DNA of 64,000 nucleotides from positions 23,322 through 87,321 of the IMG/VR virus record IMGVR_UViG_3300031912_000871, one strand, 5' to 3'. The notes beneath the pieces were generated by a model. It was not told where the DNA came from and did no database searches. It saw nothing but the letters and a program-made list of their open reading frames with translations. Below, piece by piece: positions 1-48,968 of this stretch; within the stretch, counting starts at the first letter, position 1; every line of letters begins with the position of its first letter. Source of the stretch: a virus (lineage: Duplodnaviria > Caudoviricetes). Made by a program: the position numbers and the translations under genes.

Positions 1-601
1 GCTCCTCGTGGACGACGCTCAGGTCGGCGTCGGTGGGGTCGACCAGGCCGGCCCACACCAGGATGCGGCGCGGGGAAAGGCGGAACGCTCCGCTCTTGCG
101 GACCGACTCCCCGGCCGCTGCGGCCCGCTTCACGACGTCCGGGGCGTAGGGGATCCACCAGACGACGGCGACGAGCAGCGGCAGAACGATCCGCAGCGCG
201 AACTCGGCCGTGGTGGCGGCGGTCAGGGCGACGACGAAGCCCATCGGGACGGCCACGATCCACACGAGCCGGCCGGGCCAGCCGAGGTTCCCGTGCTTCT
301 TGTGGTGGTCGTCGGCGTAGGCGGCGAGGGTGATCAGCACGGCGCTGGTGACGCCGGCCAGCACCCACGCCGCTACGCCCTTCGCGCCGCTGATGACGGC
401 GAGGTGGTGGAGACCCTGCGCCTCCCACAGCAGCACGAGCGGGGTGGTGACGGCGCGGCCGACCTTGGCCAGGGAGCGGCGCCGCACCTGCCACCACAGC
501 AGACCGATCAGTACGGCGGCCAGGGCGGCACCGGTTGGCACGATCATCGCGCCCACCTGGTCGAGGGCCGGCGCCCACTGCGCCGGGTCGAACTGGTCCA
601 C
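1..601 (-). CDS. Multi-pass membrane protein, Spd (plasmid spread)-like; runs off the left edge
   Basis: Not in ORF track; translated by hand from GTG 601 behind RBS GGAGACCCC: MDQFDPAQWAPALDQVGAMIVPTGAALAAVLIGLLWWQ...FRLSPRRILVWAGLVDPTDAD. Several hydrophobic helices; lies downstream of traB. Confidence 0.65.
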   Translation of the reverse strand, partial: MDQFDPAQWAPALDQVGAMIVPTGAALAAVLIGLLWWQVRRRSLAKVGRAVTTPLVLLWEAQGLHHLAVISGAKGVAAWVLAGVTSAVLITLAAYADDHHKKHGNLGWPGRLVWIVAVPMGFVVALTAATTAEFALRIVLPLLVAVVWWIPYAPDVVKRAAAAGESVRKSGAFRLSPRRILVWAGLVDPTDADLSVVHEE

Positions 602-628
602 AGGGGTCTCCTCAGTGTCGGGGCTCGC

Positions 629-847
629 TCAGCCGCTGATCTTCTGGCGCACGGAGTTGTCGGAGGCGTAGTCGAGGTGGCGGGCCAGCGCGCGCTTCGG
701 CACGCGGTGAACGCGCACCAGGCGGAGCAGACGCGCGCCGAGGGTGCCGCGTAGCTCGGCGACGCGCGCCTCCAGCTGCTCGATCTCGTCCTTCGCGGCG
801 CGTGCCGCGTCGAGGTCGGCGCGCGCGTCGGGGGGCAGGGTCTCCAT
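629..847 (-). CDS. Small coiled-coil/HTH-like protein
   Basis: METLPPDARADLDAARAAKDEIEQLEARVAELRG...VPKRALARHLDYASDNSVRQKISG; ATG 847 with TACGGT -10-like hexamer just upstream. Confidence 0.6.
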   Translation of the reverse strand: METLPPDARADLDAARAAKDEIEQLEARVAELRGTLGARLLRLVRVHRVPKRALARHLDYASDNSVRQKISG

Positions 848-929
848 GTCGGAGCACCGTACCGTCGGGCGCGCACTGGTGTGCGCGGTCGGGGCGGGGT
901 GAGCGTGTCGCAGATGCATCGGCGCGCTC

Positions 930-1313
930 CTAGCGGGCGATGGCGCGCGCCGGGCGCGCGTTGGAGGTGAGGGGGTTCGCGCGCCGGGGCGCGCTGGCGG
1001 GGAGTTCCGGCGCGCGGCGGGGCGTGCCAGCGATCTGGGTGAGCGCGGCGGCGAGCTGATCGGCGACCACCTCGGCGCGTAGCGCGGCGCGGTGGTCGCT
1101 GGGCAGCGGCGCGGAGAGAGTCACGTCGAGCCGAACCCGCCGGCCGGGGATCTGGGTGAGGGTGGCGACGACGACGCCGAGGTCCGGAACGTGCCGGCGG
1201 ATCGGCTCGCTGCGGTGCTCGCCGGACAGGCTGAGGGCTTGGCAACGGGGGACGTCGCACCACTCGGGGTGGGTCTTCGGCGGGCGGGTCCAGCGGCGGC
1301 CGGTGATGGTCAC
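930..1313 (-). CDS. Hypothetical protein of conjugative module (HPEWC...C...H motif)
   Basis: GTG 1313 overlaps traB stop (GTGA); MTITGRRWTRPPKTHPEWCDVPRCQALSLSGEHRS. Confidence 0.6.
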   Translation of the reverse strand: MTITGRRWTRPPKTHPEWCDVPRCQALSLSGEHRSEPIRRHVPDLGVVVATLTQIPGRRVRLDVTLSAPLPSDHRAALRAEVVADQLAAALTQIAGTPRRAPELPASAPRRANPLTSNARPARAIAR

Positions 1314-3488: not shown

Positions 3489-3872
3489 TCAGTTGGTGCG
3501 GGTGGTGGTGTTCGGTCCGGCGCCGTACGTCTCGCGTTGGGCGAGGCCACCGGCGGCCTGGCCGCGTTCGCGGATGGACAGGTGCTGGTCGATCAGGCCG
3601 AGGATCGTGCTGGCGATGCCGCGGCTGGCGTCGGCGTGCTTAGCGCGGTCGGTGGCGGCCTGGGCGCGCTGCTGCGCGCGGTCGCGGAGACGACCGACGG
3701 CCGCGACACCGGCCCCGGTCGGGCCGAACAGCCGGATCATGTTGCCGTGGAAGCGGTCGAACCGGGCGAGGTCCTCGTCTGCGAGCTGGCGGGCGGCGCG
3801 GGCGTCCTCGACGTCCCGGGAGGCCGTCACCTGGAGGTCTCCGGCGTACCGCTTCGCGTCGGTGAGGTTCAT
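3489..3872 (-). CDS. Helical hypothetical protein, conjugation operon
   Basis: 127 aa, RBS AGGAG, co-directional with traB. Confidence 0.65.
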   Translation of the reverse strand: MNLTDAKRYAGDLQVTASRDVEDARAARQLADEDLARFDRFHGNMIRLFGPTGAGVAAVGRLRDRAQQRAQAATDRAKHADASRGIASTILGLIDQHLSIRERGQAAGGLAQRETYGAGPNTTTRTN

Positions 3873-3886
3873 CTGGATGCTCCTGT

Positions 3887-5308
3887 TCAGATGGCGTAGG
3901 CGTCGGTGACGGCCATGCCGCCGGCCTGGTCGACGGCGGCCTTGACCTGCCGGTGCGGGTCGACCTCGGAGAGGGCCTGCCGGGCGTCGGAGAGGGTGCC
4001 GTCGGCCGCGGCGATCCGGGCGGCGGCGGCGTTGACGCGGCCGTTCGTGTGGTCGGCGAGGTCGCGGACAGCGCCGATCACGTCATCGGGGAAGTTGTAG
4101 CCCTCCACCCAGTGCTTGAGATCGGTGTGCCACTTGGCTTCCTCCATGACCCGCTGGAGGTAGGACTGGGCGTCCTCCCGCTCGGCTTCCTGCTCGCGGA
4201 TGATGCTGTCCAGCTCGGCGCGGACCTGCTCCAGGTTCCGCACGTCACCGCCGGTCGCGGTCTCGATCGGCACCGTGGTGCCCCCTTCGGTCGTCGTGGT
4301 GTTGTCGCTGGCCAGTCGCAGGTGGCGGCGGTTGGTCCGCTCCTGCTCGTCGGCTGTCTTGGCGTGCCGCTTGCACAGGTCGCCGACCTCGGTGGCCTCG
4401 TCGGTGCACCGCTCGCCCGGACCCTGACCGCCGATCGGGGGCGACACGTGCCGGCACTGGCTGGTCCGGGCGTTCTCGGCGGCGACCAGCGCGTCGTGGC
4501 GGGTGCAGTAGCCGTTGCCGAGCTGCTCGTCGCGCAGGTCGGTGCAGTTCGAGCGGCCGGTGTTGTAGCGGCACAGGCGGTGAGGTTCGTCGCGGGCGAC
4601 CTTCTTGAGCTCCTCGGTGAGGGTCTGCTGCTTCTCGATGGTGTCGATGCAGGTCTGGCAGTACGGCTCGCCGGGGGCCTTCGGGTTGGTGCACTGCTGG
4701 GTGCTCGGCCACGGCAGCGGGAACCTCTGGCACGTGTCGTCCTGCTGCTCGGCCGGGGCGGCCGGCTTCGTTTCCGGTGCGGCTGTGGGCACCGGCTTGG
4801 CCTTGCGGTCGGCGGTGGTGTTGCAGTCGACGCACTTGTCTCCGGGCAGGAGGATGGTCTTGCAGTCGGGGCAGCGCTGCCAGCGGGAGTCGGTCTTCCA
4901 GTCGTACTGGCACAGCTCCCGCTTGCGGTTCTGGTGCTGCGCGGGCCAGCCCATCTTGGCGAGGTTGGCGCGGCAGTCGGCCTGCGGGCATAGGCCCGGT
5001 TCGTCCGTGCCCGCCTCCTTCTTGGTGCGCTGCTCGTACCACTTCCGGGCGGTCGCGGATCCGGTGGGCCAGCCCTCCTTCATGCCCTTGGCGAAGCCGC
5101 GCAGGTAGAGGAAACCGCCGACGGCGCCGGTGGCGATCGCGGCGCCCACCTTGACGCCTGCGGGGGCCGGTTCGGGGCTGGAGCCCTTCCACGCCTCGAC
5201 GCGGCCCCGGTAGAAGCCGGCGACGGCGGCCTTGCCTTTCCCTCCGGCCTTATAGATCACGGTCGCGATGACGGCGATCCAGATCAGGCCGATCCACGTG
5301 ATCTCCAT
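3887..5308 (-). CDS. Membrane-anchored protein with several Cys/His zinc-finger-like motifs and C-terminal helical domain
   Basis: N-terminal TM; CPDC..CVDC, C..C..CQTC and two C..C..CxxH clusters; C-terminal ETATGGDVRNLEQVRAEL coiled region. Confidence 0.7.
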   Translation of the reverse strand: MEITWIGLIWIAVIATVIYKAGGKGKAAVAGFYRGRVEAWKGSSPEPAPAGVKVGAAIATGAVGGFLYLRGFAKGMKEGWPTGSATARKWYEQRTKKEAGTDEPGLCPQADCRANLAKMGWPAQHQNRKRELCQYDWKTDSRWQRCPDCKTILLPGDKCVDCNTTADRKAKPVPTAAPETKPAAPAEQQDDTCQRFPLPWPSTQQCTNPKAPGEPYCQTCIDTIEKQQTLTEELKKVARDEPHRLCRYNTGRSNCTDLRDEQLGNGYCTRHDALVAAENARTSQCRHVSPPIGGQGPGERCTDEATEVGDLCKRHAKTADEQERTNRRHLRLASDNTTTTEGGTTVPIETATGGDVRNLEQVRAELDSIIREQEAEREDAQSYLQRVMEEAKWHTDLKHWVEGYNFPDDVIGAVRDLADHTNGRVNAAAARIAAADGTLSDARQALSEVDPHRQVKAAVDQAGGMAVTDAYAI

Positions 5309-5310
5309 CG

Positions 5311-5763
5311 TTACTTCTTTCCGGTGCCGGTGAAGGAGCCGACGATGCTGCCGACGAACTCGGTGATGCCCTTGACCAGCTGCTCCAGGCCGTCACCGAA
5401 GTCGCCGGTGGCGGACCGGACAGCGAGGGGGAGCAGCGCGGCGGCGGCGAGGGTGATCCAGTCGACCTGCTTGCGCCACATGTGCACGGCAACCACGAAG
5501 AAGGCCGCCAGGGCGATGAGGCCGGAGACCTTCGCGTCGAGCTTGTCCATGGTGAGCTTGTCGATCAGCTTGGTGATGGAACCGACCGCGCCGTCCGCCT
5601 GCTCGCCGGCCCAGGTGGTGATGAGGCCGGACACCCCGGTCATGACGAGGACTGTGGTGACGCGCGGCAGCATCCGGTTGCCGACCGTCCAGAGCAGAGT
5701 GGCGATGACGAGGCAGGCGAGGCCGGCCCCGGCGGACACCGCGTAGGTGGCCTCGGGCTTCAT
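5311..5763 (-). CDS. Four-helix membrane protein (Spd-like)
   Basis: 150 aa, four hydrophobic segments, 2 nt upstream of the next gene in the operon. Confidence 0.7.
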   Translation of the reverse strand: MKPEATYAVSAGAGLACLVIATLLWTVGNRMLPRVTTVLVMTGVSGLITTWAGEQADGAVGSITKLIDKLTMDKLDAKVSGLIALAAFFVVAVHMWRKQVDWITLAAAALLPLAVRSATGDFGDGLEQLVKGITEFVGSIVGSFTGTGKK

Positions 5764-5772
5764 GGGGGGTCC

Positions 5773-6030
5773 TTACTGCGAGAGTGTCTGGATGTCGCGG
5801 AGCAGGTCGTCGAGACCGACGTGGACCTTCCGCCAGGCGGCGGCGCGCTGCGCCGGCCGGAGACGCATGACGGCCGCGCGCACCTGGTCGTAGCGCACGG
5901 CGGCCTGGGCGGCCGGGTCGTCGCCGGCCTCGGCCCACTTGCGTCTCCAGGTCGCGTCTTCGCGCTGTTCCCGGCGGCTCTTGCGGGTCGACTTGACCGG
6001 GCGGCCCGGCTTGCGGTTGAGGATGTTCAC
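5773..6030 (-). CDS. Hypothetical protein
   Basis: GTG 6030 overlaps stop of upstream gene; MNILNRKPGRPVKSTRKSRREQREDATWRRKW. Confidence 0.6.
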   Translation of the reverse strand: MNILNRKPGRPVKSTRKSRREQREDATWRRKWAEAGDDPAAQAAVRYDQVRAAVMRLRPAQRAAAWRKVHVGLDDLLRDIQTLSQ

Positions 6031-6275
6031 CGGGTCACCACCGTCGCGCCGGAGCGGGCGACGGTGACGGTGGCGATGACCATGCCGCCGCCGAGCCGGT
6101 GCACCCGCAGGGTCCACTTCGTCAGGTCGGTGTTGAGGGTGCCGGTCTTGGCCTTGACCATCGCCTCGAACTGGGCCCGGAGGGCGGCGTTGTCGGCGGG
6201 GTCGATGTTGGCCTCCACCTCGGCCCTGACGAAGAGGCCGCGGTGGAGGCGCAACGTGTACCGGTAGGGGCTCAC
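6027..6275 (-). CDS. Hypothetical protein
   Basis: 82 aa ORF packed between neighbours with overlaps. Confidence 0.6.
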   Translation of the reverse strand: MSPYRYTLRLHRGLFVRAEVEANIDPADNAALRAQFEAMVKAKTGTLNTDLTKWTLRVHRLGGGMVIATVTVARSGATVVTR

Positions 6276-6278
6276 GGG

Positions 6279-6536
6279 TCAGCGGGTGACCTTCGTGCGC
6301 CGGTCGCTGATGATCCCGGCGACGACGGCGATGAGCAGGGCGCCGACGGCGCCGGCGAACGCGCCGTCGGGGTTGCCGCCGGGGGTGTGGCGCTGCACGA
6401 GCGCCACGGCGAGCAGGGTCACCATCGCGCCGAAGGCGAGGATCGTGGCGACGCTGAACGGGTTGATGGTGCTGGTGGGGCGCTGGGTGCGCCCGGGCCC
6501 CGGCATGGTTGCCGGGGCCCGACCGATCTCGGGCAT
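6279..6536 (-). CDS. Two-helix membrane protein, first gene of transfer operon
   Basis: ATG 6536 after GGAGACCCC; two hydrophobic helices. Confidence 0.6.
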   Translation of the reverse strand: MPEIGRAPATMPGPGRTQRPTSTINPFSVATILAFGAMVTLLAVALVQRHTPGGNPDGAFAGAVGALLIAVVAGIISDRRTKVTR

Positions 6537-6710: not shown

Positions 6711-7943
6711 TCAGGGCTTTCGCAGCAGGGTGGGGATGGTCGCGGCGACGGACATGGCGAGGATGACGCCTCCGGCCACCATCGGTGCTCGCAGGCCGGC
6801 ACTGGCGGCGATGAGTCCACCGAGGACCGCGCCGGCCGGTGACGCGCTGTTGGCGACGGTGCGGAACCCGGCGATGACGCGGCCGAGCATGTCCGCCGGG
6901 ACGAGCAGCTGCCGCAGTCCCGCGTTGACGGTGGTGATGAGCGTCTGCGACGCGCCGATGGCGGCGAGCAGCGGCGCCGCCACCCACGGGCTGTCGACCA
7001 CGGCGATGACCGGCCAGGCGGCGGCGTGGGCGACCACGCCGATCAGCAGGGCCGGTTCGGCGCCGACGGCACGGGTGATCCGGTGGGCGAGTGGCCCGAT
7101 GACCACGCCGCCGGCCGCGAGGGCCGCGACGAGCAGCCCGAACCCGGCGTCGGTGACCCGCAGTCCCTGCTCGGAGGTGGCGTAGAGGACGAACGTCGCC
7201 CAGGCCGCGTTGTAGGCGAGGTTCGCGGCGGCGGCGAGGAGCGCGAGCGTACGCAGCCGGCGGTGCCGGGCGAGCCACAGCAGCCCGTCCTTCACGGCCC
7301 GGCCGATCGGGGCGGTGTGGTCACCGGCGGCGCGTAGCCCTCGGGGGAGCCTGGTCAGCAGTGCGGCGCTCGCGGCGAAGCTGGCCGCGTCGACCGCGTA
7401 CGGGACGACTCGGGCCGCGGTGAACGCGGCGGCGCCGACCGGCGGCCCGATCAGGCTCTTCCCGGCGGTGTCGAGAGAGAACATGCGGCCGTTGACGTGG
7501 TGCAGGGTGTCCGGGTCGCGGTGGGCCAGCTCGGCGACGGCGGCCTGGAGGGCGATGTCGTGGAACACCTGCCCGGTGACCACGACGGCGGCGATGACGG
7601 CCAGGATCCACACGGTGGCCACGTCCAGGGCGACCGCCGCGGCGAGCGCGGCGACGGCGACAGCGCGGGTGATGTCGGCCGTCAGGACGGTCGCCCGGTA
7701 CGGCCACCGGTCGACCAGCGCGCCGGCGAACGGCGCGACGACCACCCACGGCAGGTAGCCGATGGCGGTGACGGCGGCGACGGCCGTGGGTGAGCGGGTG
7801 AGGGCGGCGGCGGTCAGCGGCACGGCGGCGAGGAACATGCCGTCGCCGACGCTGGAGACGCCGACGGAGGCGAGGATGGCCCGTAGACCGCGGCCGCCCG
7901 GCCGGGCGGTGTGCTCAGCCGGGCGGGGGTTCGTCACGGTCAT
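6711..7943 (-). CDS. MFS transporter
   Basis: SVGVSSVGDGMFLAAVPL, motif A-like GALVDRWPYRA, about 12 TM helices; ATG overlaps DUF397 stop (TGATG). Confidence 0.9.
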   Translation of the reverse strand: MTVTNPRPAEHTARPGGRGLRAILASVGVSSVGDGMFLAAVPLTAAALTRSPTAVAAVTAIGYLPWVVVAPFAGALVDRWPYRATVLTADITRAVAVAALAAAVALDVATVWILAVIAAVVVTGQVFHDIALQAAVAELAHRDPDTLHHVNGRMFSLDTAGKSLIGPPVGAAAFTAARVVPYAVDAASFAASAALLTRLPRGLRAAGDHTAPIGRAVKDGLLWLARHRRLRTLALLAAAANLAYNAAWATFVLYATSEQGLRVTDAGFGLLVAALAAGGVVIGPLAHRITRAVGAEPALLIGVVAHAAAWPVIAVVDSPWVAAPLLAAIGASQTLITTVNAGLRQLLVPADMLGRVIAGFRTVANSASPAGAVLGGLIAASAGLRAPMVAGGVILAMSVAATIPTLLRKP

Positions 7944-8155
7944 CAGTCGTGGTAGCCGGACCGGATCGCGGCCACGAAGGTGTCCCACTCGCGCGGGTTG
8001 TAGAACTGGGTGCCGCCGTCGGGGTTCTTGCTGTCGCGGATGGCGCGCCATCCGGTCGGGTGCTTCGCCACGGTGACGCAGCTGCCCTCGTTGCTGCTGG
8101 TGTCGAACGGGCCGAACTCGTTCAGCGGCGGCGGGGTCTTGTCCGTGCGGTCCAT
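7943..8155 (-). CDS. DUF397 protein
   Basis: SSNEGSCVTVA...AIRDSKNPDGGTQFY...EWDTFVAAIRSG is the DUF397 pattern. Confidence 0.9.
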   Translation of the reverse strand: MDRTDKTPPPLNEFGPFDTSSNEGSCVTVAKHPTGWRAIRDSKNPDGGTQFYNPREWDTFVAAIRSGYHD

Positions 8156-8192: not shown

Positions 8193-9047
8193 CTACGAGG
8201 CGGTTGTGGCCATCTGCTCGATGAAGGTCAGGGACTCGGCCGGCGGAAGCGCGGCGGCCGTCATCCGGTCGAACACGGTGGCGAAGTCGCTGGTCTCCGT
8301 ATCGCCGGCGAAGGTGATCTCGGCGGCGGCGGTCTCCACGATCACCAGCGGGTCGTCGTCGGGGAACGAGTGGAGCGTGAACCCGCTGGTGGGCAGCGCC
8401 GTCATCGGCGTGCCGGTGGGGATGACCTGCACGGTGATGGTGTCCACGTCGGCGGTGTCGAGGATGCTTTGCCACACGCCGGGGCGGGGGTCGACGTCGC
8501 CGGCGGGCCGCCACCGCAGTGCCGCTTCGGTGAGGACGGCGTGGTAGGTCGGCGCGCCGGGTGCCCGCATGCGGGTGACCCGCTCGACTCGGGCCTGCAC
8601 GGCGGCGGTCACGTCCCGCTCGCCGTGCAGGTTCGCGGCGGTGATGCAGGCGCGGGCGTAGTCGGCGGTGTGGAACAGCCCGGGGACGACCAGCGGCTGG
8701 AAGTGGCGCACGAGGGTCGCCCGGCCGTCGAGATTGGTCAGTTCCAGCTGGCGCACTTCGAGGGAGCCCCGGTGGAGGTCCCGCAGGGTGGTGACGCCGT
8801 GCTCGATAGCCTCGGCCAGGGCGAGGGCCCGATCCCGCGTGGGCTGGTCGACGTAGCAGGCGTCCAGCCAAGCGGTGATGTCGGCGATCGGCGGCCACAG
8901 CTCGCCGCTCTCGATCCGCGAGACCTTGGACTGGCTGACACCGATCCGCTCGGCCAGCTGCTTGCCGGACAGGCCGCGGGTGCGTCGGGCCACGCGCAGC
9001 TGTGCCCCCAGGCGGAGCCGGAGAGCAGAGCGAAGCGGGTCCGACAC
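8193..9047 (-). CDS. XRE HTH + DUF5753 regulator
   Basis: LGAQLRVARRTRGLSGKQLAERIGVSQSKVSRIESG; FQPLVVPGLFHTADYARA; VLTEAALRW; adjacent DUF397. Confidence 0.9.
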   Translation of the reverse strand: MSDPLRSALRLRLGAQLRVARRTRGLSGKQLAERIGVSQSKVSRIESGELWPPIADITAWLDACYVDQPTRDRALALAEAIEHGVTTLRDLHRGSLEVRQLELTNLDGRATLVRHFQPLVVPGLFHTADYARACITAANLHGERDVTAAVQARVERVTRMRAPGAPTYHAVLTEAALRWRPAGDVDPRPGVWQSILDTADVDTITVQVIPTGTPMTALPTSGFTLHSFPDDDPLVIVETAAAEITFAGDTETSDFATVFDRMTAAALPPAESLTFIEQMATTAS

Positions 9048-9230: not shown

Positions 9231-9485
9231 TCATCGGAGCCTCCGTCGGGCTTGCTGGCTGCTCTGCCGCATCGCCGCGTCGAGGGCGTTGTGGTCGACC
9301 ATCAGGATCTGGCCGGGCAGACACGCCGGCGACTCGTGCACGTCGAACTGATCGCCCATGTCGTGCTCGGTGAGCAGCTGCCGTACCTCCGTCACCCGGC
9401 CGGGCTCGCAGTAGACGGTCCTCCGCTCGTCCTCGATGACCTGCGCCCAGAACCGCACCTCGGCCTCAGCGTCGCCGCCGGTCAC
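9231..9485 (-). CDS. Hypothetical protein
   Basis: 84 aa, GTGA overlap with ATPase stop. Confidence 0.6.
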   Translation of the reverse strand: MTGGDAEAEVRFWAQVIEDERRTVYCEPGRVTEVRQLLTEHDMGDQFDVHESPACLPGQILMVDHNALDAAMRQSSQQARRRLR

Positions 9486-10378
9486 CAGTCGAGGCCCGTC
9501 AGCTGGCGGCGGTCCGGACCGAGGAACGTGAAGGCGGTGGCCCGGTCCTGGAGCCGGGAGAACAGCCGGTCGCCGAGCATGGTCTCCAGGCCCGCGACCC
9601 GGGTGCCGTCGCGGCGCTCAACGTCGCGGGCCCGCAGGTTCGTGGTCACGATCGTGCGGAGCCGCGCGTTGAGCCGGTACTCGATCAGCTCCAGCAGCTC
9701 CCGCCGTACGAACTCCCGCGCCTCGATGTCCATCTCCGCGCCGAGGTCATCGAGGATGAGCAGCTCAGCGGTGCGCGCCCGGTCGCGGATCTCCCACACC
9801 GGGTGCTTCGAGCCCTCCGGGCGCAGCTCGGCGAGGTAGCCGTGCATCGTCCAGGACCGTACGAGGAGCTGCTTGGTGACGACCTCACCGGACCGCAGCC
9901 GAGTCGCGGCGCCGCGCCGGGCGGCTTCGGCGGCCGTCGCGTATGCGGCCTGGGTCTTCCCGGAGCCGGTCTTCCCGGCGAAGATCGCCGTCCGTGCGTC
10001 CGGGTCGGCCAGCCACGCGGCGATCGCGTCCGGGTGCTGGTCCGTGTCGAGGGACGCGAGTCCCACGTCGGCGGCCACCCGGTCGTCGGGCAGGCACGCC
10101 TGCAACGCCCGTTCCCGCATCGCGGATTGGTGGCGTAGCACCAGCTCGCTGGCCGGAACGTCGTCGTCGGTTCCCGTTACGGGGGCCGGGAGACCCGCCT
10201 CGCGGGCCTGCCGCGCGGCCTCGGCACGTTCCGCTGCGAGGGCGCCCACCTGGTCGCGTAGGTGCTCCGGGAGCGCGCCGAGGAGACCCTTCGCGAGCCA
10301 GCTGGCCTGCTGGGTGTCGGGGCGGCGCTGCCGGGCGATGGCCTTGCCGACCGAACCCGTCACTTCCTGCGTGGTCAC
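9482..10378 (-). CDS. DnaC/IstB-like AAA+ ATPase (helicase loader)
   Basis: Walker A GKTGSGKT, Walker B LLILDDLGAE, TIVTTN, LFSRL; directly after initiator. Confidence 0.88.
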   Translation of the reverse strand: MTTQEVTGSVGKAIARQRRPDTQQASWLAKGLLGALPEHLRDQVGALAAERAEAARQAREAGLPAPVTGTDDDVPASELVLRHQSAMRERALQACLPDDRVAADVGLASLDTDQHPDAIAAWLADPDARTAIFAGKTGSGKTQAAYATAAEAARRGAATRLRSGEVVTKQLLVRSWTMHGYLAELRPEGSKHPVWEIRDRARTAELLILDDLGAEMDIEAREFVRRELLELIEYRLNARLRTIVTTNLRARDVERRDGTRVAGLETMLGDRLFSRLQDRATAFTFLGPDRRQLTGLDW

Positions 10379-12717: not shown

Positions 12718-12835
12718 AGGGGTCTCCGTTCGTGCGGCGGGTCGCTCACCCGCTGGTCTGCCCCCGACGTCGAGGGCTGGCCACCCAGTCAAGTAACTGA
12801 GTGGTGTGTATGTGTGACAGTACAAACGGTGCAAC

Positions 12836-30625: not shown

Positions 30626-30632
30626 TGAGCGC

Positions 30633-31273: not shown

Positions 31274-31276
31274 CGA

Positions 31277-33782: not shown

Positions 33783-33818
33783 GGTGCTCCTCACCGAGGC
33801 AGGGGACAGGGCTGGTAC

Positions 33819-33858: not shown

Positions 33859-33868
33859 ACGTGCCTCG

Positions 33869-37239: not shown

Positions 37240-37297
37240 GAGCGTGCCTCCAGATGGGCGGGCAGAGTCTGCCCGGCATGGTCGCTCCGCCGCCGGG

Positions 37298-39637
37298 TTA
37301 GCGTCCCGCTCGTGTGGCCCGCTTGGCGCTGAGGGTCAGCCGACACCGGCAGCCGATCGTCTCCTCCAGCGGGCCGTCCGGGTCGCGCGGGTACCGCAGC
37401 TGCGCCTTGCCCACGGAGAACGTCTTGCCGACCGGTCGGGCTTGCCCGTTGGCGTTGCGGTGGGTGGTCCGGACGGCGCTGTCACGGCGGTCCCGCCACG
37501 TCGCGGTCACCTCCAGCCCGAGCGCGGCAGCAGCCCGCGCCGCGGCGTACATGCCGCCGGTGACAGCCGTGCGGACGGCGTGACCGGCGACGCTCTTCGC
37601 CCAGCTGAGCAGCGACCCGGCGTCGACCCGGGCGGTGAGCTGCTCCATGGTCTCTCCGGCGGCCTCCCCGGCGGCGAGGGACGCGGCGAGCTTGAGGCCG
37701 GCCGCGCGGGCGGCGTCAGCGGCGGCTGTGACCGCTGCGGTGGCCACGGCCGCCGCTTCCCGGCCTGCGGCGGCCGTGCCTGCCGACGGACCGGCGAGCA
37801 GCCCCACCGCGGTGACGGCGGCGCCCGTAGCTGCGGCCGCGATCAGCGGGCTCAAGGCATCCTCGGTGTCCTGCGCCCACACGTCGGGGTCGACGGCCGC
37901 CGTGGTGTCGAGGGCCTTCAGCCCGACCCGCCGGTCCACCTCCATATCGGGGTCGGCCGTCCAGTGCCGGGTGCCCTTGCGGGCCTTCGGGGACCGCAGC
38001 CGCGCCGACGTCCGCGCCGCCCATCGGGCCGTCAGAGCCGTCAGTGCCGCGGTCACCGCGGCCTCGGCTGCCTCGCCGCCCACCTGCTCGCTGCTCACCG
38101 TGCGGGCTGGCGCGGCGGCGGCCTTCAGCCCGTACCGGGCTACCCCGAGGGCGGTTTTGCCGGCCGGTTCGCCGGCTGGCTTCTCACGGTCGGCGGCGTC
38201 GCGTGGCTTCCTGCCGGCAGGTGGCTTCGTCTCGCTGTCCGGCTTCTCGTCCGGCTTCTTCCCGGTGGGGGGCTTGTCGCCGGGCTGCTCCTCGTCGCCG
38301 CCGTCGGCCGCAGGGGCCATCTGGGCGGCCATCTCCTCGCGGCGCTTCTCGGCCTCCTCGACGTCCTCCGGTGTCTGCGGGATCTGTGCCTTCCCGGTGT
38401 TGGGCAGCCACAGCGCCCGGGTCTCGGGCGTGGAGTGCACCTCGTAGCCGGCCAGCTCCGCGTACGACTCGATGGTGCGGAGGCCCTGCTGCACCTCCAG
38501 CCGGGCCTCCTCGCGGACGGCCCGCTGAGGTAGCCGCAGCGCTTCGACACCGGACAGGTCGAACTCCGGTTCGAGGTCGCGCTCGTCCAACGGGTCGACC
38601 ATCTCCGCTGCGATCAGCTCCAGCGGCGGCGGCATGGTCTCGGTCCAGAAGTTGTACTTGTCCTGCGCGGCGTTGTCGAACGTCGAGCCCTTGGAGATGC
38701 CGAGCAGGCTCTCGGGTACACCGATGCCGCCGAGGATCTCCTCCCGCGCGTTGCGGGTCAGCTGCTCGTACAGCATGTCCTTCGGCCGGGCCGACAGGTC
38801 GGCGTAGCTCACCTGGTCGGAGTTGACGATGGTGACCTTGCCGGCGTCGACCGGACCCCGACCGAAGCGGCGCTCCAGCTTCGTGGTGTCCTCGCCGTTG
38901 AGGCCGCCCTTGATGCCGACGATCGCGCGTACGTGCCCGTCGTTGAGCATCCAGTGCACGTTGATCTGCCGGGCCAGGTCGTCCATCTCGACGGACGCGC
39001 CGAGCGCCGACATCACCGTGTCCGCCCGGAACGGGTCCAGCGGGTGCGGCTCGCGGATCCACCACACCCGGTCGAACGGCACGGTCCGGACCGAGCCGTC
39101 GGGCATCTTCGTCTCGAAGTGGGAGATCAGCCGGTCACCGGCCACGACCCGCCCACTCTTCGCGCTCTCGGTGGGCACCGGCACGGTGCGGCCTGGGGGC
39201 AGCAGGTCCAGGCGGATGATGTCCCCGCCACGGGAACGGGTGAACTCCACGAACGCGCCACGCGGCGAGTACATGACCTGGATGAACAGGCGCCGCTTGA
39301 ACGCGCGGCCCTTCTCCAACGGGTTGGTCTGAGCGTGCGGCTGGAGCAGCCGGACCACGGGGTGGTCGTCCACGTACTCGTCGGTCCCGGCGACCTTGTA
39401 CCGGAACGGCAGCCGGGAGAAGTGCCCGGCCATCAGGGAGGTGCCCCGCCACAGCCAGACGGTCCGCTCATACGCCTGGTAGACGGCCCGCTCGACGTCC
39501 CACTTCTGCTGGCGGCGTTTCCCGCCGAGCCAGTCGGGCATCTGCCCGCTGTCGGTGGACCACCGGATCGTATCGACCGTCTTGGTCTCCACGTCGTCGG
39601 CGCGGCGGCCGAGGCGGAGGCTGGGGAACAGCGGCAC
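37298..39637 (-). CDS. Portal protein fused to MuF-like minor head domain
   Basis: Portal motifs (FRYK, VPFDRVWWIREPHPLDPFRA, REEILGGIGVPESLLG); C-terminal TWRDRRDSAVRTTH...LRYPRDPDGPLEETIGCRC. Confidence 0.88.
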   Translation of the reverse strand: MPLFPSLRLGRRADDVETKTVDTIRWSTDSGQMPDWLGGKRRQQKWDVERAVYQAYERTVWLWRGTSLMAGHFSRLPFRYKVAGTDEYVDDHPVVRLLQPHAQTNPLEKGRAFKRRLFIQVMYSPRGAFVEFTRSRGGDIIRLDLLPPGRTVPVPTESAKSGRVVAGDRLISHFETKMPDGSVRTVPFDRVWWIREPHPLDPFRADTVMSALGASVEMDDLARQINVHWMLNDGHVRAIVGIKGGLNGEDTTKLERRFGRGPVDAGKVTIVNSDQVSYADLSARPKDMLYEQLTRNAREEILGGIGVPESLLGISKGSTFDNAAQDKYNFWTETMPPPLELIAAEMVDPLDERDLEPEFDLSGVEALRLPQRAVREEARLEVQQGLRTIESYAELAGYEVHSTPETRALWLPNTGKAQIPQTPEDVEEAEKRREEMAAQMAPAADGGDEEQPGDKPPTGKKPDEKPDSETKPPAGRKPRDAADREKPAGEPAGKTALGVARYGLKAAAAPARTVSSEQVGGEAAEAAVTAALTALTARWAARTSARLRSPKARKGTRHWTADPDMEVDRRVGLKALDTTAAVDPDVWAQDTEDALSPLIAAAATGAAVTAVGLLAGPSAGTAAAGREAAAVATAAVTAAADAARAAGLKLAASLAAGEAAGETMEQLTARVDAGSLLSWAKSVAGHAVRTAVTGGMYAAARAAAALGLEVTATWRDRRDSAVRTTHRNANGQARPVGKTFSVGKAQLRYPRDPDGPLEETIGCRCRLTLSAKRATRAGR

Positions 39638-39641
39638 CCGG

Positions 39642-39827
39642 TTACTCCCTACCCAGCAGGAAACCGACTCCGGCGGTGAGGCCGCCGGCCAGCGCGGCAC
39701 CGGCGAGCGGATGCCAGCCGAACGCGGCGACCACTGCGGCAGCCGCGACGGTCAGGACCCCGGCGGCGAGCAGGACGGCGCCGGTGATGTCGCGGGCGCG
39801 GCGGCTGGTCAGAAGTCGGCGGCTCAC
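39642..39827 (-). CDS. Small two-helix membrane protein preceding portal
   Basis: 61 aa hydrophobic; leaderless GTG 27 nt from late-promoter motif. Confidence 0.7.
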   Translation of the reverse strand: MSRRLLTSRRARDITGAVLLAAGVLTVAAAAVVAAFGWHPLAGAALAGGLTAGVGFLLGRE

Positions 39828-39876
39828 GGCCGGGACGGTAGGCCCACCGAAGGGCTAGCGTCCCCCGGGCGCGTGG

Positions 39877-40230
39877 TCAGGCGACCGCCATCGCGGGCAT
39901 GGGAGGCCGGCCGTAGTTGTGGGGCTCCTCGTGCAGGTGCTCGCAGGCGTCCCAGGGCATCAGGTGAGTGGGGCACTTGCGCTTGCGGCGCCCGTCCGGG
40001 CCGCCGCGCAGGTGAGCGGTGCCGACGGTCGCGGCCGAGCATGTCTGTCCGCGCACTGCGTCGTACCAGCCCTGGCACTGAGCGCACCGCAGGTCGAGCA
40101 CATCTACCCTGACCCCCGCGGTCAGGACGATGTACCCGTCTTCGAGGGCCTGTTCGGCGGACTCGGGTTCGATGGTGACGTTTGCTGCCGCGTACCACTG
40201 GTGTTCGGGGCTGAAGACCGCTGCTGGCAA
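39877..40230 (-). CDS. Cys/His-rich hypothetical protein
   Basis: TTG 40230 with GGAGG; CAQC...C...H and CPTH...CEH. Confidence 0.6.
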   Translation of the reverse strand: MPAAVFSPEHQWYAAANVTIEPESAEQALEDGYIVLTAGVRVDVLDLRCAQCQGWYDAVRGQTCSAATVGTAHLRGGPDGRRKRKCPTHLMPWDACEHLHEEPHNYGRPPMPAMAVA

Positions 40231-40478
40231 GGGGGTGACCTCCAAGCACGAGGGGAGGGATCTGCTTGTTTCGGCGACATCTGGGGCAGGGTTGCGGCCC
40301 GCCGTCCTCCCCGGCTCGCGTAGCGAAGTATGTCGATGACCAGCGAAAACCGGTCGATGTCGCTGGCTGCTGTGATGCCCGAGCATACGGTGATCACCCG
40401 CCCCCGCGTCAACTACAGTGAACGAATCTAGCGCCAGGCCGTCCGGTTGACTTGACTGGCCGGATGGCCGAGGGAAGC

Positions 40479-40874
40479 ATGGTGGAAATGTCGACCCCCC
40501 CGCGGCAGACCTTCGCCGAACTCCTCGAACATCTCTTCGTCACCCATCCGAACCCAGCAACCCGGCGCCGCTACAGCGACGCCGAGGTCGCCATAGCCGT
40601 CGGAATCTCCAAGACCGCCGTCTGGGCGTTACGCACCGGCCAGTCGAGCAACCCCACCCTGGAGACCATCTACGGCTTGGCCCGCTTCTTCGGTGTGACG
40701 CCCGGCTACTTCTTCGGTGAGCACGACACCATCGACCCCGAGCTGCGTGCCGCGATGGCCGACGCCGGCGTGCGGCACATCGCCGCCCGCGCGGCCGGCC
40801 TCACCGAGCAGAGCCAGCAGATGGTCCTGAACGTCCTCGAACAGGTCCGCCGACTCGAACACCGAGGTGAATAG
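40479..40874 (+). CDS. XRE-family HTH regulator (EspR-like layout)
   Basis: YSDAEVAIAVGISKTAVWALRTGQSSNPTLETIYGLARFFGVTPGYFF; C-terminal GVRHIAARAAGL. Confidence 0.88.
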   Translation: MVEMSTPPRQTFAELLEHLFVTHPNPATRRRYSDAEVAIAVGISKTAVWALRTGQSSNPTLETIYGLARFFGVTPGYFFGEHDTIDPELRAAMADAGVRHIAARAAGLTEQSQQMVLNVLEQVRRLEHRGE

Positions 40875-41041
40875 TGGCAGTCAACACCCGATCGGGGCTA
40901 AAGTCCCGTTAACGGGATCGACCACGCTGGCACTCATCGGCGGGAATTTCATCCCTGAGTGAAGATCCTTGCCAGAAAGCCCTCCCTCATGCAGCGTGGT
41001 GGACCCCCACCGGTACTGGATCCACCGGAGCGCCCCGCCCC

Positions 41042-41566
41042 ATGCCGATCAACCAGCTCCGCCGACAGATCACCCCCCTCGTGGACCGGTTCTCACCACC
41101 GGCCCCCTGGGACATCGCCCGCTACGTCGAGACGATCAGCGCCCGACGCGGACGACCCATCCAGCTGCTGCCGACCGACACCGCCGGCGGCGTCTGCGGC
41201 CTATGGGTCGCCACCGACCAGGCCGACTACATCGCCTACGAGCGCGGCACCTCCGGCCCCCACCGCGACTTGATCATCCTGCACGAGCTGGGACACATCC
41301 TGTTCGGCCACGACGGCCGCACCCTCGCCCACACCGGCTCCCGCTCCCGCTACCCGGACATCCAGGAACAACAGGCCGAGGTGTTCGCCACCGAGGTGCT
41401 CCAGCGAGCCGGCCAGAAACGCCCAGCCCCGCCGTCGCGGCAGGCCGTGGCCATCCTCGCTACCTTCAACGCGATAGGACCCGCCCGTGCCGCCCACACT
41501 GCTGATCCTGCTGCTGTGCGCCGCCACCGCGTACGTGGCTTGGGCGCCGCTGCGCAGTACACCTGA
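41042..41566 (+). CDS. ImmA/IrrE-like zinc peptidase
   Basis: CGLWVAT, HRDLIILHELGHILFGH, QEQQAEVFA. Confidence 0.82.
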   Translation: MPINQLRRQITPLVDRFSPPAPWDIARYVETISARRGRPIQLLPTDTAGGVCGLWVATDQADYIAYERGTSGPHRDLIILHELGHILFGHDGRTLAHTGSRSRYPDIQEQQAEVFATEVLQRAGQKRPAPPSRQAVAILATFNAIGPARAAHTADPAAVRRHRVRGLGAAAQYT

Positions 41567-42758
41567 GCCGCCCCGCCGGTCACCGGCCCGCCAAGCACTC
41601 ATCCTCGGCATGGCGTTCCTCACCATCGGCGTGTGGGCCGGCTACCAGGCAGACGACGCTCTCAACAGGCTCACCGGCTGGACCGGCACCTCCGAACTCA
41701 GCCAGCACCTCGCCATCATCGCCTCGCTGACCGCCCTGGAAGTCATGCTGCTGCACTGGCATCTGCCGCCGGAAGCGGCCCGGAGCGAAAGCCAGTGGCG
41801 CTACATCCTCGCCCTCGGCGTCGCGGTTGGCATGGTCGGCTTGTTCCTGCTCGGCGGCCCCGACGCCCGCCCCGCGACCGAGGGCGCCTACTACCGGGCG
41901 ACGCCAACCGTCGCGATCCACGAGAGCGTGTACGCGCTGCTCCTCGCCGCCGCCACAACAGACCTGGCCGTACAGTCCGGCATCTACCGCCGTTGGCTGC
42001 GTGACTACCCGTACAGCTGGTGGGGCCTGACGGCGTTCGCGGTCGCGGGCTGGCTGGCCCTTCCCTTCGCGCTGCTGTCCGGTATCGACGCCGCCGCCGA
42101 AGGACTCGGCCTGTTCGAGGTGAGCTCGCAGCTGCTCGCCGCCACCGAGTCCCTGATCCTCACTGCCTGCGCCCTGTTCGCCGTCGGCGCGGTCCTCCCC
42201 ACCGCCGGACCGAGGATCGCCGCCGGCGTCCGTCGCGTCCGCCGCGCCCGAGCCGCCCAAAAACTACGGCCCCTGTGGCAGGCCGTCCTCGACGGAAACC
42301 CCGGCTTGGCCCTCGACCGGCCCCGAGGAGCCGACTCCGCAGGCGAGGTGCTGCGCACCCTCATCTCCGGCGACGACTGGCGGGTCTACCGCCGCGTCAT
42401 CGAGGTCCGCGACGGCTACCTGGAACTGCGGCCCTGGCTCGACCAGGACGTCATGAACCTCGCCCTGTTCAAATGCCAGCAGGCCGGGCTGACCGGCCAC
42501 GACCTGCACGCCGCCGTCGAGGCAGCCGTCATCGCCGCCGCGCTGCGCGCCAAGGACCGCGCTGACCAGCCCCGCGAGGGCACCCACGTCGACCCGGGCG
42601 GCGCCGACATGTCGGGGGAGATCCGCTGGCTCGCCCGGGTGTCCCAGCACCTCCGCCACCCCGTCGTACGGGAGGTGCTGCACGAACTGGACCTGCGGCG
42701 CGAGTCCGAACGTAGCTGGGTGGACCAGCAGCTGGACAAGCTCGGCATCAAGCGATGA
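41487..42758 (+). CDS. Multi-TM protein with C-terminal cytoplasmic domain (MAB_1171c/DUF6545-like)
   Basis: About 7 TM helices then LRPLWQAV...VYRRVIEVRDGYLEL...GEIRWLARV. Confidence 0.75.
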   Translation: MPPTLLILLLCAATAYVAWAPLRSTPEPPRRSPARQALILGMAFLTIGVWAGYQADDALNRLTGWTGTSELSQHLAIIASLTALEVMLLHWHLPPEAARSESQWRYILALGVAVGMVGLFLLGGPDARPATEGAYYRATPTVAIHESVYALLLAAATTDLAVQSGIYRRWLRDYPYSWWGLTAFAVAGWLALPFALLSGIDAAAEGLGLFEVSSQLLAATESLILTACALFAVGAVLPTAGPRIAAGVRRVRRARAAQKLRPLWQAVLDGNPGLALDRPRGADSAGEVLRTLISGDDWRVYRRVIEVRDGYLELRPWLDQDVMNLALFKCQQAGLTGHDLHAAVEAAVIAAALRAKDRADQPREGTHVDPGGADMSGEIRWLARVSQHLRHPVVREVLHELDLRRESERSWVDQQLDKLGIKR

Positions 42759-46880: not shown

Positions 46881-46908
46881 ACCGCGCATAATTCCGATTA
46901 TGTCCGCG
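46881..46908. other. dif-like Xer recombination site
   Basis: ACCGCGCATAA-TTCCGA-TTATGTCCGCG, 11-6-11 layout; GCGCATAA and TTATGT match E. coli dif (GGTGCGCATAA-TGTATA-TTATGTTAAAT). Confidence 0.72.
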
Positions 46909-46951
46909 CGTCGGAGGGGATTCGCCGACCGCCGACCGTAGGCTCGACGGC

Positions 46952-47431
46952 ATGACGACCCCCGACGCGGTGAGCGACCGCGACCTGGAGACCCAGCCGA
47001 TCCCACTGCCGAGCGCCCCCGCGCCCGCCAGCCCTCCGCAACTGAGCCTCGCCAACGCACTGCGGGACACGACCGCCAACCTCTCCGCGTACATCGAGCA
47101 GCGCGCCCATGAGATCGCCGCGCCCCGGATCGCCAAGATCGAGCAGGAAGCCGCCGCGCGGGTCGCCGCGGCCGAGAGCGAGCGCGATGTCAACGCCCGC
47201 CGGTTCAATGACGTCGAGGTGGAGTTCCGCCGCCAGTACAAGGCCCTGGAGACTCGCCGCGACGAGTTGGCCTGGGCCGCTCGATACCTGCCCGCCGGAC
47301 TGCGGGGCTTCGTCCTCGGCGATGACACGCGGCGACACGTCTACCCGCAGCCCCGAGAGTCGTTCGCCGCCGCCGTCGACCAGGCCGCCGCCGGGCTCGG
47401 CCTCACCCCGTACGCCGAGGAGAGCCAGTGA
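46952..47431 (+). CDS. Coiled-coil hypothetical protein
   Basis: First gene of recombinase operon; TAGGCT hexamer upstream. Confidence 0.65.
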   Translation: MTTPDAVSDRDLETQPIPLPSAPAPASPPQLSLANALRDTTANLSAYIEQRAHEIAAPRIAKIEQEAAARVAAAESERDVNARRFNDVEVEFRRQYKALETRRDELAWAARYLPAGLRGFVLGDDTRRHVYPQPRESFAAAVDQAAAGLGLTPYAEESQ

Positions 47432-47985
47432 CCACGACCGACACGTCCCGCCCTCGCTGGCGAGGCCCGAAGACCCACAAGATCACATGGGTGGTCGACC
47501 GGCCCATCGACGCCCGCCCCGACAGCCCCTGGACGTGCTCCTGCGGCAAGGTCGGCGACGGGACCGACCTGCCCGCCCAGCAGCACCTCGCCACCGCGTC
47601 AGCATCGGCCTTCAAGCGGCTGGAGCACCACCAGGCGTACGCCATCCTGGGCATCAGTGCGTCCGGCGACGACAAGACCGCGATCGAGGTCCTGTTCATG
47701 CACCCGGCCTGGCCCCAACTCCGCCGGTACGTTGCCACCGGGTACGACCACTGGGGCATGCTCACCGCCGAGGTGCGCTGGAACGACGTTGCCGTGGCGC
47801 TCGACGCCGGCGACATCACCGGCGAGGACGAAGACCTGCTCGTGCTCCGGTTCGCCGCCTCCGTCGTCGGCGCCGGTTCGGTGAACGTCGGCCGGCTCTC
47901 CCGAATCACCTTCGACCAGCACCGGAACCGTCGCATCCGCAGCGCGATCGACGCTATCTTCCCGCCAGCGGAGGAGAGCGAGTGA
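47428..47985 (+). CDS. Hypothetical protein with CxC...H motif
   Basis: Overlaps both neighbours; WTCSCG...QQHL. Confidence 0.65.
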   Translation: MTTTDTSRPRWRGPKTHKITWVVDRPIDARPDSPWTCSCGKVGDGTDLPAQQHLATASASAFKRLEHHQAYAILGISASGDDKTAIEVLFMHPAWPQLRRYVATGYDHWGMLTAEVRWNDVAVALDAGDITGEDEDLLVLRFAASVVGAGSVNVGRLSRITFDQHRNRRIRSAIDAIFPPAEESE

Positions 47986-48968
47986 CCGACCTGGCTCGGT
48001 TCACCACCACGGCGGTCGTGGCCGGCGAGCAGGACGCCCTGCGGGACTTCACCGAGCGGTGGCTGACCAACCGGCGGCTGTCCGAGCACACCCGGGCCGC
48101 GTACCGCCGCGACGTCGGCCTCTGGGCCGCCTGGTGCGCGGAGCGCGGACTGAACCCGCTGCAGGCGACGTTCCTCGACGTCAACGCGTGGGGCCGCCAC
48201 CTGGAGCAGCCAGACCCGCGCACCGGGAAGCCCGCCTCCCCCGCCACGGTCGCCCGCCGACTCTCGGCCGTGTCCAGCTGGTACGACTTCCTCGCGAAGC
48301 TCGGCGCGGTGGCCACCAACCCGGCCGCCGTCGCTGATCGGCCCCGCGTCGACCGGGACCACTCCCCCACGATCGGGTTCACCGCTACCGACGCCACCGC
48401 GATGCTCACCGCAGCCGCCCGGGGCGACCGGTGGATCGGCTCAGCCGGCCCGGCGGTCGCCTCCATGCTGGTAGACCTCGGCATCCGGGTGTCCGAACTG
48501 TGCGCCCTCGACGTCGAGCACCTCGGCCACCGCGAAGGCCACCGCACCGTCGACCTGCTCGCCATGAAGGGCGGGAAGCGGCGCACCCGGTCCATGCCGC
48601 CCGCCGTGGCCAAGGTGGTCGACGCGTACCTCGAGTTCCGGGCCGGCCGGGAGCAGATGCCGGTCGAGCAGCTGCACGGGCCGCTGTTCCTCAACGCCAA
48701 GGGCCAGCGGATCGGCCGGCACGAGGTGTACCGGTTCGTGCGCCGGCTGGCCAAGGCCGCGGGCATGGCCGGCTGGGAGAAGATCAGCCCGCACTCGTTC
48801 CGGCACGCCTGGAACACCATCGCCCGGGAGCGGGGCGCTGATCTGGAAGACCGCCAGCACGCCCTCGGTCACGCCGACCCGCGTACGACCCAGCGGTACG
48901 ACCGGAACCGCGGCGCCCTCGACCGCGACCCGTCGTGGCTGGTGGCCGCCGCAACGTCGGGCAGCTGA
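47982..48968 (+). CDS. Xer-type tyrosine recombinase
   Basis: SEHTRAAYRRDV, DLGIRVSE (R), KGGK (K), HSFRH, LGH, TTQRY; no N-terminal arm-binding domain. Confidence 0.92.
   Translation: MTDLARFTTTAVVAGEQDALRDFTERWLTNRRLSEHTRAAYRRDVGLWAAWCAERGLNPLQATFLDVNAWGRHLEQPDPRTGKPASPATVARRLSAVSSWYDFLAKLGAVATNPAAVADRPRVDRDHSPTIGFTATDATAMLTAAARGDRWIGSAGPAVASMLVDLGIRVSELCALDVEHLGHREGHRTVDLLAMKGGKRRTRSMPPAVAKVVDAYLEFRAGREQMPVEQLHGPLFLNAKGQRIGRHEVYRFVRRLAKAAGMAGWEKISPHSFRHAWNTIARERGADLEDRQHALGHADPRTTQRYDRNRGALDRDPSWLVAAATSGS

Follow-up and report, generated by a model that had tools for sequence, protein, structure and literature searches.

The 64,000-nt window analysed here (bases 23322-87321 of IMG/VR record IMGVR_UViG_3300031912_000871, a single contig of 87,321 bp classed as a virus) probably belongs to a single temperate siphovirus of a Micromonospora-type host that lives as a phage-plasmid and carries a TraB-type transfer operon. 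Judged from the encoded proteins, the whole 87.3-kb contig is one element, a predicted temperate siphovirus related to Streptomyces phage Gilgamesh. It encodes a complete set of virion and packaging proteins as well as partition and replication functions, which are two of the features by which a phage-plasmid is recognised. An earlier sequence-only reading had proposed that the element can spread both as a virion and by hyphal conjugation; the architecture of the element supports this proposal, in which virion production and conjugation are both predicted from the genes.

The earlier reading had confined the element to positions 1-48968 of the window, and this was too small an extent: phage genes run on to 64000, and the element also fills the 23.3 kb of contig before the window, where ParA, a ParB-like protein next to a small terminase (contig 15414-15989), SSB, a PAPS-reductase-like protein and a truncated tyrosine recombinase are encoded. 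Genes were called by log-odds of third-position G+C (GC3), chosen since the G+C content is high, and 74 genes in the window (almost all on the minus strand) and 41 further genes upstream on the contig were obtained. The G+C content varied between 0.65 and 0.77 along the whole window without a step, and tRNA genes were not found. Protein relatives pointed to Micromonospora as the host genus. A search of sequencing runs recovered the sequence from two data sets of isolate size and from soil metagenomes. Megablast of 23.5-kb and 12.6-kb pieces against phage and plasmid collections gave no match, and single-protein searches of genome contigs and viral contigs for related loci gave none.

The claim of a TraB/FtsK translocase proved right at the family level, as indicated by profile, by fold, by an hhalign match to Tra of pIJ101 and by a tblastn match to TraB of pCQ3. 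The protein (Table 1) is laid out as five N-terminal helices, a Walker A motif (GDSGSGKS, residue 300), a Walker B motif (..DE), a QxPS motif and a C-terminal winged helix. Searched alone against Pfam, NCBIfam, PHROG and the PDB sequences, it gave no match. An exhaustive HMMER search retrieved 243 cluster representatives, and a family profile built from 57 of them matched EccC (E 6e-19), FtsK (E 6e-13) and TcpA and, at its C-terminal positions 580-645, winged helix-turn-helix (wHTH) domains. The GDSGSGKS and ..DE motifs were invariant across the family, and Pfam FtsK_SpoIIIE was reached individually by 25 of the 57 members. An AlphaFold model (pLDDT 88.7) contained the N-terminal helices, a beta-rich domain, a RecA-like core, a disordered linker and the C-terminal winged helix, the last as H-H-H-E-E at residues 637-693 with a pLDDT of about 95. 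Five long hydrophobic helices at residues 17-152 of the model indicated N-terminal membrane association, and the top ranks in a Foldseek search were taken by the pCW3 coupling protein TcpA and by FtsK motors (E about 1e-12).

As aligned by hhalign, the translocase was collinear with pIJ101 Tra/KilA from the pre-motor domain through the winged helix (98.5% probability, E 1.7e-15, columns 168-643), and it also matched Gilgamesh gp10, annotated "FtsK-like DNA translocase" (99.3%), and pZL12.71c (96.7%). A direct match to pCQ3 TraB was obtained by tblastn (E 2.5e-6); pairwise BLASTP against pIJ101 Tra alone was not significant. Capsid and portal genes were absent from four of the five plasmids with the closest translocase homologues, indicating that the gene belongs to a plasmid-type family that phages share. 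Membership of such a family favours a transfer or plasmid function for the translocase.

The translocase gene is the seventh of ten tightly packed genes that run from 6536 down to contig position 22459, and four of the ten encode predicted membrane proteins. The six genes upstream of it encode proteins of 127 residues, 473 residues (one transmembrane (TM) helix, Cys-rich, with a coiled coil), 150 residues (3-4 TM helices), 85 residues, 82 residues and about 85 residues (2 TM helices); the last of these is the first gene of the operon, with its ATG at 6536 behind GGAGACCCC. The 487-residue membrane protein at the other end of the operon had no Pfam match. The operon had been said to contain "spread-type membrane genes": membrane proteins were indeed found in it, homology to Spd proteins was not, and "spread-type" describes topology only. 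Inside the gene of the 487-residue protein, just before the window, there are three tandem 33-bp repeats (CCGGCACGCGCGC...GACGA, contig 23000-23100) encoding TGTRADD-type peptide repeats. They are not conserved in the relatives and sit where an integrated copy in M. echinospora, described below, is split.

Could this DNA be two separate elements, the transfer module of a plasmid or of an actinomycete integrative and conjugative element (AICE) lying beside a prophage or recently inserted into it? The TraB subfamily does occur on non-phage plasmids too, and cargo genes (for an MFS transporter and a DUF397 protein) separate the operon from the replication genes. However, these genes occupy a variable slot, which holds a different 434-residue gene in M. 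echinospora and is empty in Micromonospora sp. NPDC006766, where the TraB operon comes directly after the conserved XRE-DUF5753 gene. An att site or a composition break at 6.7-9 kb had been named as the sign of a separate AICE; none was found, the G+C content being flat at 0.70-0.76 and the stretch being the cargo slot. An AICE would have an integrase and att sites of its own around a small rep-tra-spd module; beside this operon neither an integrase nor an att repeat nor a change in composition was found. ParA is encoded beyond the operon, which places the operon inside the phage replicon.

Two separate elements are made still more improbable by the relatives, and we give that explanation very little weight. 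Three close Micromonospora relatives were followed, and all of them carry the capsid and TraB genes in the order and orientation seen here, at 75-88% identity. In M. echinospora (CP191497.1) the capsid gene lies at 4,572,322 and the translocase gene at 4,603,275 (about 31 kb apart), and on the 86,731-bp contig of NPDC006766 the distance from capsid to translocase is about 28 kb. Relatives in which the two halves never co-occur would, by the sequence-only reading, have refuted it; the halves occur together in all three close relatives, and also in more distant elements. Both of the two IMG/VR contigs with a TraB relative (64 and 53 kb; 100% and 97% complete by CheckV) also encode an HK97 capsid; a capsid and a TraB-family gene occur together in PhiNon1 and pCQ3; an FtsK-like tra gene is paired with a virion operon in pZL12; and Gilgamesh and six Streptomyces plasmids of 125-133 kb combine capsid, terminase and FtsK-like genes.

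Regulatory motifs common to both halves also speak against two elements. The window contains 13 copies of the motif GGAGACCCC, where 1.8 would be expected, and the whole contig contains 25. Most of them abut a start codon, and many stand behind a hairpin whose loop is GAGCG. A ribosome-binding-site style shared by transfer and early phage genes had been noticed before, and the enrichment of this motif agrees with it: a hairpin with this loop and the motif (603-611) stand upstream of the gene that closes the TraB operon, and the motif alone (6537-6545) stands upstream of the gene that opens it. Because the cargo slot is variable and the motif or hairpin stands before operon genes, the TraB operon is internal to the element and styled like the rest of it. 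A leader of ~57 nt, consisting of a TACACTTTGGGGTGT box, a CGGGT-GAGCG-ACCCG hairpin and GGAGACCCC, recurs before many small early genes (e.g. window 45731, 54325 and 56316; contig 6156, 8003 and 20431) and was seen in the M. echinospora copy as well.

Both parA and an integrase gene had been predicted to lie beyond the window. They were found there, as ParA (E 5e-35) accompanied by the ParB-like protein and as a tyrosine recombinase of at least 341 residues truncated by the contig start. As to circularity, the contig has no terminal overlap, and a circular map was obtained by comparison with two relatives. In both of them no more than about 20 bp lie between the homologue of contig 1222-1577 and the homologue of 87101-86132 that comes after it, indicating that the contig ends are neighbours on the circular map. 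Positions 1-1221 and 87102-87321 of the contig (window 63781-64000) form an insertion that is absent from both relatives and carries the truncated recombinase; possibly the assembly ended there because the insertion is a repeated mobile element. A Logan contig from isolate run X2 continues 1,031 nt past contig position 1. When the truncated integrase was read across the joined contig ends, its continuation was non-coding (GC3 0.58), so that the ends do not simply abut. Coverage, the other check proposed, was taken from related isolate run X3, in which the depth of the element contig was 1081 and that of three long unrelated contigs 307-380, a hint of about three copies per chromosome.

These data also bear on the explanation that the element is an ordinary integrating prophage and the contig a piece of chromosome in which ParA and TraB are remnants. 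The missing terminal overlap would fit a prophage, and so would the M. echinospora copy, which occupies about 100.8 kb between clpC1 and a bmp gene. But the 87-kb contig contains no host gene; stand-alone contigs of 87.3 and 86.7 kb from two assemblies are circular permutations of each other; the depth in the related isolate is ~3 times that of other long contigs; and related Streptomyces elements were deposited as separate plasmids of complete genomes. In the integrated copy, moreover, the break falls within a gene, and a clear att core is lacking. We therefore consider a plain prophage improbable.

The M. echinospora copy has kept ParA. It is opened inside the homologue of the 487-residue membrane-protein gene, residues 4-307 being encoded at its right end and residues 295-443 at its left end. 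Only a 12-bp sequence, GACGCGCGCGCC, was common to both ends, and it was unconvincing as an att core because it lies in low-complexity DNA. A C19 run was seen at the left end and a tRNA-Gly gene at L019:11627-11708. Extra cargo in this copy (L007:455-3785 and 7236-7991; L017:19412-21681) comprises a GGDEF-EAL protein, a methyltransferase, Abi_C, an SNF2 helicase and a PycTM (Pycsar effector-like) protein.

The recombinase previously described as Xer-type and lying mid-element is indeed Xer-like, having a SAM-like N-terminal domain and a catalytic tyrosine-recombinase domain, with XerC and XerD as its best NCBIfam models. A dif-like 28-bp site with an 11-6-11 arrangement was found 1.07 kb upstream of the recombinase gene; it is single on the contig, with 0.1 expected by chance. 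Inverted repeats right beside the gene were limited to a terminator hairpin. The arms matched E. coli dif at 8/11 and 6/11 positions and the predicted Frankia dif at 7/11 and 7/11, both references (from PMC3025954) being other than the dif of the host. The inner arms are those of E. coli dif, and the right inner arm is that of the predicted Frankia dif. A genome-wide scan with CGCATAA-N6-TTATGTC gave at least 120 matches in unrelated bacteria, with none from Micromonospora among the matches listed, and was uninformative on the dif of the host.

The slot of the recombinase has another occupant in NPDC006766. There, with conserved genes on both sides as here, lies a recombinase that shares 25% identity with ours and 35% with pZL12.36c, and the equivalent intergenic position (L020:8772-8805) holds a perfect 11-bp inverted repeat with a 12-bp spacer (CTCATTCACGA-N12-TCGTGAATGAG). 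Since recombinase and site were exchanged together, they appear to be a cognate pair. As the replicon has a headful-type terminase, the most economical candidate role for the pair would be circularisation and multimer resolution, by analogy with Cre/loxP or XerS/difSL; alternatively, the recombinase could integrate the element at a chromosomal dif-like site.

A life cycle can be proposed for a phage-plasmid with these parts. Terminally redundant DNA would be circularised after infection, multimers would be resolved by the recombinase at the dif-like site, as by Cre at loxP or XerS at difSL, and the circle would be partitioned by ParA. A TraB hexamer would bind the element via its winged helix and pump double-stranded copies across hyphal contacts and cross-walls, spreading the element without virions. 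Induction via an ImmA-type switch would yield virions, and chromosomal integration, as in one relative, would be a second possible resting state.

Several observations weigh against an autonomous, conjugative phage-plasmid. The translocase scores under every curated family threshold. A k-mer cluster scan did not find a clt-type 8-bp repeat array and yielded only generic GC-rich 8-mers and the three 33-bp coding repeats at contig 23000-23100, and in sequence searches the membrane proteins of the operon matched no known Spd family. The recombinase, at ~140 bits against XerC/XerD cut-offs of 279-335, does not qualify as an orthologue of either. The contig is not closed and breaks inside the integrase-bearing insertion, and the closest complete relative, that in M. 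echinospora, is chromosomally integrated, so extrachromosomal life is not obligatory.

The results with clt and Spd would also suit an FtsK/TraB-like operon that serves the prophage within one mycelium rather than conjugation between strains, possibly by carrying copies of the plasmid through cross-walls or into the compartments of spores, or in exclusion or defence. The entire Gilgamesh-like lineage, with a plaque-isolated phage among its members, has retained a divergent FtsK-like gene, the operon adjoins ParA, and HerA/FtsK ATPases are found in defence systems as well, all of which is consistent with such a role. It nevertheless seems unlikely to be the better account, because the TM helices, the motor, the C-terminal wHTH and the collinear homology are those of Tra/TraB of pIJ101 and pCQ3, and because the same subfamily occurs on ordinary plasmids without virion genes. 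The TraB/Spd machinery of Streptomyces reportedly mediates both intermycelial transfer and intramycelial spread, so that the two roles would not be exclusive, and we continue to favour a phage-plasmid with a transfer operon.

Phage-plasmids are usually described as moving in virions only. For conjugation in mycelial actinomycetes one TraB-type motor suffices, and a phage could therefore cheaply gain a second horizontal route. Elements of this kind have been known in Streptomyces since pZL12, and what is new here is a member in Micromonospora. The conservation seen in sequence comparisons suggests that the trait is kept across the Gilgamesh-like lineage, including a phage that can be grown in the laboratory. 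Tentatively, and with more doubt than confidence, we propose that TraB-type conjugative spread is not peculiar to pZL12 but a constant trait of an entire, widespread lineage of large siphoviruses of actinomycetes, comprising Gilgamesh-like phages, replicons of 115-145 kb in Streptomyces, Nonomuraea and Thermobispora, and 87-kb elements in Micromonospora. Under this proposal, the transfer operon would be wired into early-gene control through GAGCG-hairpin/GGAGACCCC leaders, the elements would pass routinely from hypha to hypha as naked double-stranded plasmids, besides travelling in particles, and a swappable cassette of recombinase and core site (here a dif mimic) would maintain the circle. 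In the literature, no paper was found that treats Gilgamesh-like replicons as conjugative phage-plasmids.

To the few characterised cases in Streptomyces and Nonomuraea, this element adds one in Micromonospora, a producer genus. With a laboratory-grown phage among its members, the lineage offers a tractable system for studying virion-independent phage transfer and the role of the recombinase and dif-like site. A modest practical effect is that cargo (the MFS transporter and anti-defence genes) may move between strains insensitive to the virion.

The remaining phage genes are collected in Table 1. The complete siphovirus head-tail set named by the sequence-only reading was confirmed by Pfam, PHROG and homology to Gilgamesh. 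Its tail and neck part includes a fibre with an S74 chaperone domain, three minor tail proteins, a chaperone, a tail terminator, a minor capsid/MuF-like protein and a neck protein. A stretch of ~1.08 kb without a credible gene (29597-30679) breaks the otherwise tight virion operon. The 532-residue protein encoded directly behind the capsid gene has a 530-residue counterpart in M. echinospora; it is missing in NPDC006766, which has a small HNH gene downstream of the capsid gene instead, and it is for this reason taken as an accessory rather than a core virion protein. A cassette for a helix-turn-helix (HTH) repressor-like protein, an ImmA-type protease and a DUF6545 protein lies between the terminase and portal genes, as in Gilgamesh (gp98-100), and amounts to an ImmR/ImmA-like switch. 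The large terminase is related to the P1-type "terminase B" genes of many phage-plasmids.

An initiator with a DnaC-like loader had been noted, and it was recovered as an HTH initiator-like protein and an IstB/DnaC-like ATPase in a replication module homologous to Gilgamesh gp80 and gp81. The early region comprises RecT, YqaJ exonuclease, WhiB and the DnaC-like ATPase with its HTH initiator-like partner. The ribbon-helix-helix protein of the sequence-only reading was not found when ten small proteins were scanned. Beyond the recombinase, the DUF5131 protein spans its 243-position profile end to end, which implies an insertion of roughly 190 residues. Homologues of the Acb5-like protein in both relatives carry Pfam Acb5 (an anti-CBASS family), and the protein is 51% identical over 69 residues to a pZL12 protein.

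Table 1. Features of the element (window positions unless contig or another locus is named)
Feature	Position	Strand	Remarks
487-residue membrane protein, last operon gene; N-terminal 200 residues (about 4-5 TM helices)	1..601	-	Whole gene at contig 22459-23922
Two small genes (72 and 127 residues) downstream of traB	629..1313	-	GC3 call; conserved in relatives
TraB/FtsK-family dsDNA translocase, 705 residues	1310..3427	-	Profile, fold, alignments
Six upstream operon genes	3489..6536	-	No family matches
Variable cargo slot	6711..8155	-	MFS transporter 6711-7943; DUF397 protein 7943-8155
XRE HTH_31-DUF5753 regulator	8193..8993	-	Conserved in relatives
Replication module	9231..11505	-	84-residue gene; IstB/DnaC-like ATPase 9482-10378; HTH initiator-like protein 10375-11505
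Early genes	12068..15302	-	WhiB-HTH regulator 12068-12559; RecT 13321-14208; YqaJ exonuclease 14286-15302
Tail and neck genes	17945..29596	-	Pfam, PHROG, Gilgamesh homology
Tape measure, 1102 residues	23190-26498	-	
Tail tube	27332-27901	-	
Head genes, including adaptor and a small gene	30680..40245	-	
532-residue accessory protein	32196-33794	-	Directly behind capsid gene
HK97 capsid	33869-35293	-	
Protease-like (prohead-protease-like) protein	35389-37155	-	
Portal-MuF fusion	37298-39637	-	
Immunity-type cassette	40479..42758	+	HTH repressor-like protein, ImmA/IrrE M78 protease, DUF6545 membrane protein
Large terminase, P1 PacB-like	42748-44409	-	50.6% identical to Gilgamesh gp1
dif-like 11-6-11 site, 28 bp	46881..46908	+	ACCGCGCATAA-TTCCGA-TTATGTCCGCG
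Three-gene operon ending in Xer-like tyrosine recombinase	46952..48968	+	Recombinase 47982-48968
Terminator hairpin after recombinase	48980-49011		
Further phage genes	49017..64000	-	Zn-finger protein, DUF5131, Acb5-like, lysin, tail protein
DUF5131 protein, 444 residues	57046-58380	-	
Acb5-like protein, 178 residues	58850-59386	-	
Peptidoglycan-binding lysin	59797-60747	-	
Second tail protein, 670 residues	61731-63743	-	
M. echinospora copy loci	L019:7831-9231 and L004:12784-13800		

Among named relatives, Streptomyces phage Gilgamesh (MN234216, 129 kb) is the nearest by protein comparison: 26 proteins are common to both at 25-63% identity, and the virion module is syntenic. The likeness includes the portal-MuF fusion, the PacB-like large terminase, ParA, the ParB-like gene next to the small terminase, the HTH/metalloprotease/membrane cassette, the DnaC-like ATPase with HTH initiator, the PAPS reductase, tyrosine recombinases and an FtsK-like translocase with a neighbouring membrane protein; capsid, terminase and FtsK-like genes are shared between Gilgamesh and the 125-133-kb Streptomyces plasmids. 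In contrast, the present element is 87 kb long rather than about 130 kb and has a host of another genus, its recombinase is not detectably orthologous to those of Gilgamesh, and the two translocases are related at the profile level only (no BLAST match; hhalign 99.3%) and lie in different neighbourhoods.

Streptomyces plasmid-phages had been cited as precedents, which holds for pZL12, and pCQ3 and PhiNon1 can be added. The circular pZL12/phiZL12 (GQ919031, 90.4 kb) resembles the element in size and in having ParAB, a tyrosine recombinase, a virion operon and an FtsK-like tra gene with adjacent genes. It is of another phage lineage: similarity (29-54%) is confined to SSB, four tail proteins and one small protein, and capsid and terminase are unrelated by BLAST. 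[quoted passage not shown] PhiNon1 of Nonomuraea gerenzanensis (NZ_LT559120, 59 kb) encodes a TraB-subfamily homologue (27% identity, E 5e-11), an HK97 capsid and a portal, and has been described as a multicopy circle and also in integrated form (PMC5431353), a dual state that recalls the plasmid-like and integrated relatives of the present element. It is smaller and integrates at a tRNA-Val attB via a defined site, whereas the integrated relative seen here is split inside a membrane-protein gene without a clear core.

The translocase resembles Tra/TraB of pIJ101, pSVH1 and pCQ3 as a membrane-anchored FtsK-like motor with a C-terminal winged helix, in its collinear profile match to pIJ101 Tra and BLAST-level match to pCQ3 TraB, and in the small membrane proteins of its operon. 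It differs in falling under the Pfam and NCBIfam thresholds, in lying without identified clt repeats among neighbours not recognisable as Spd, and in being embedded in a phage genome. As in P1 Cre/loxP and XerS/difSL, one tyrosine recombinase is linked to one inverted-repeat core (11-6-11 here), the pairing being predicted in our case. P1 is likewise a phage-plasmid with a PacB-like terminase; the arms of the site described here, however, resemble chromosomal dif and not loxP.

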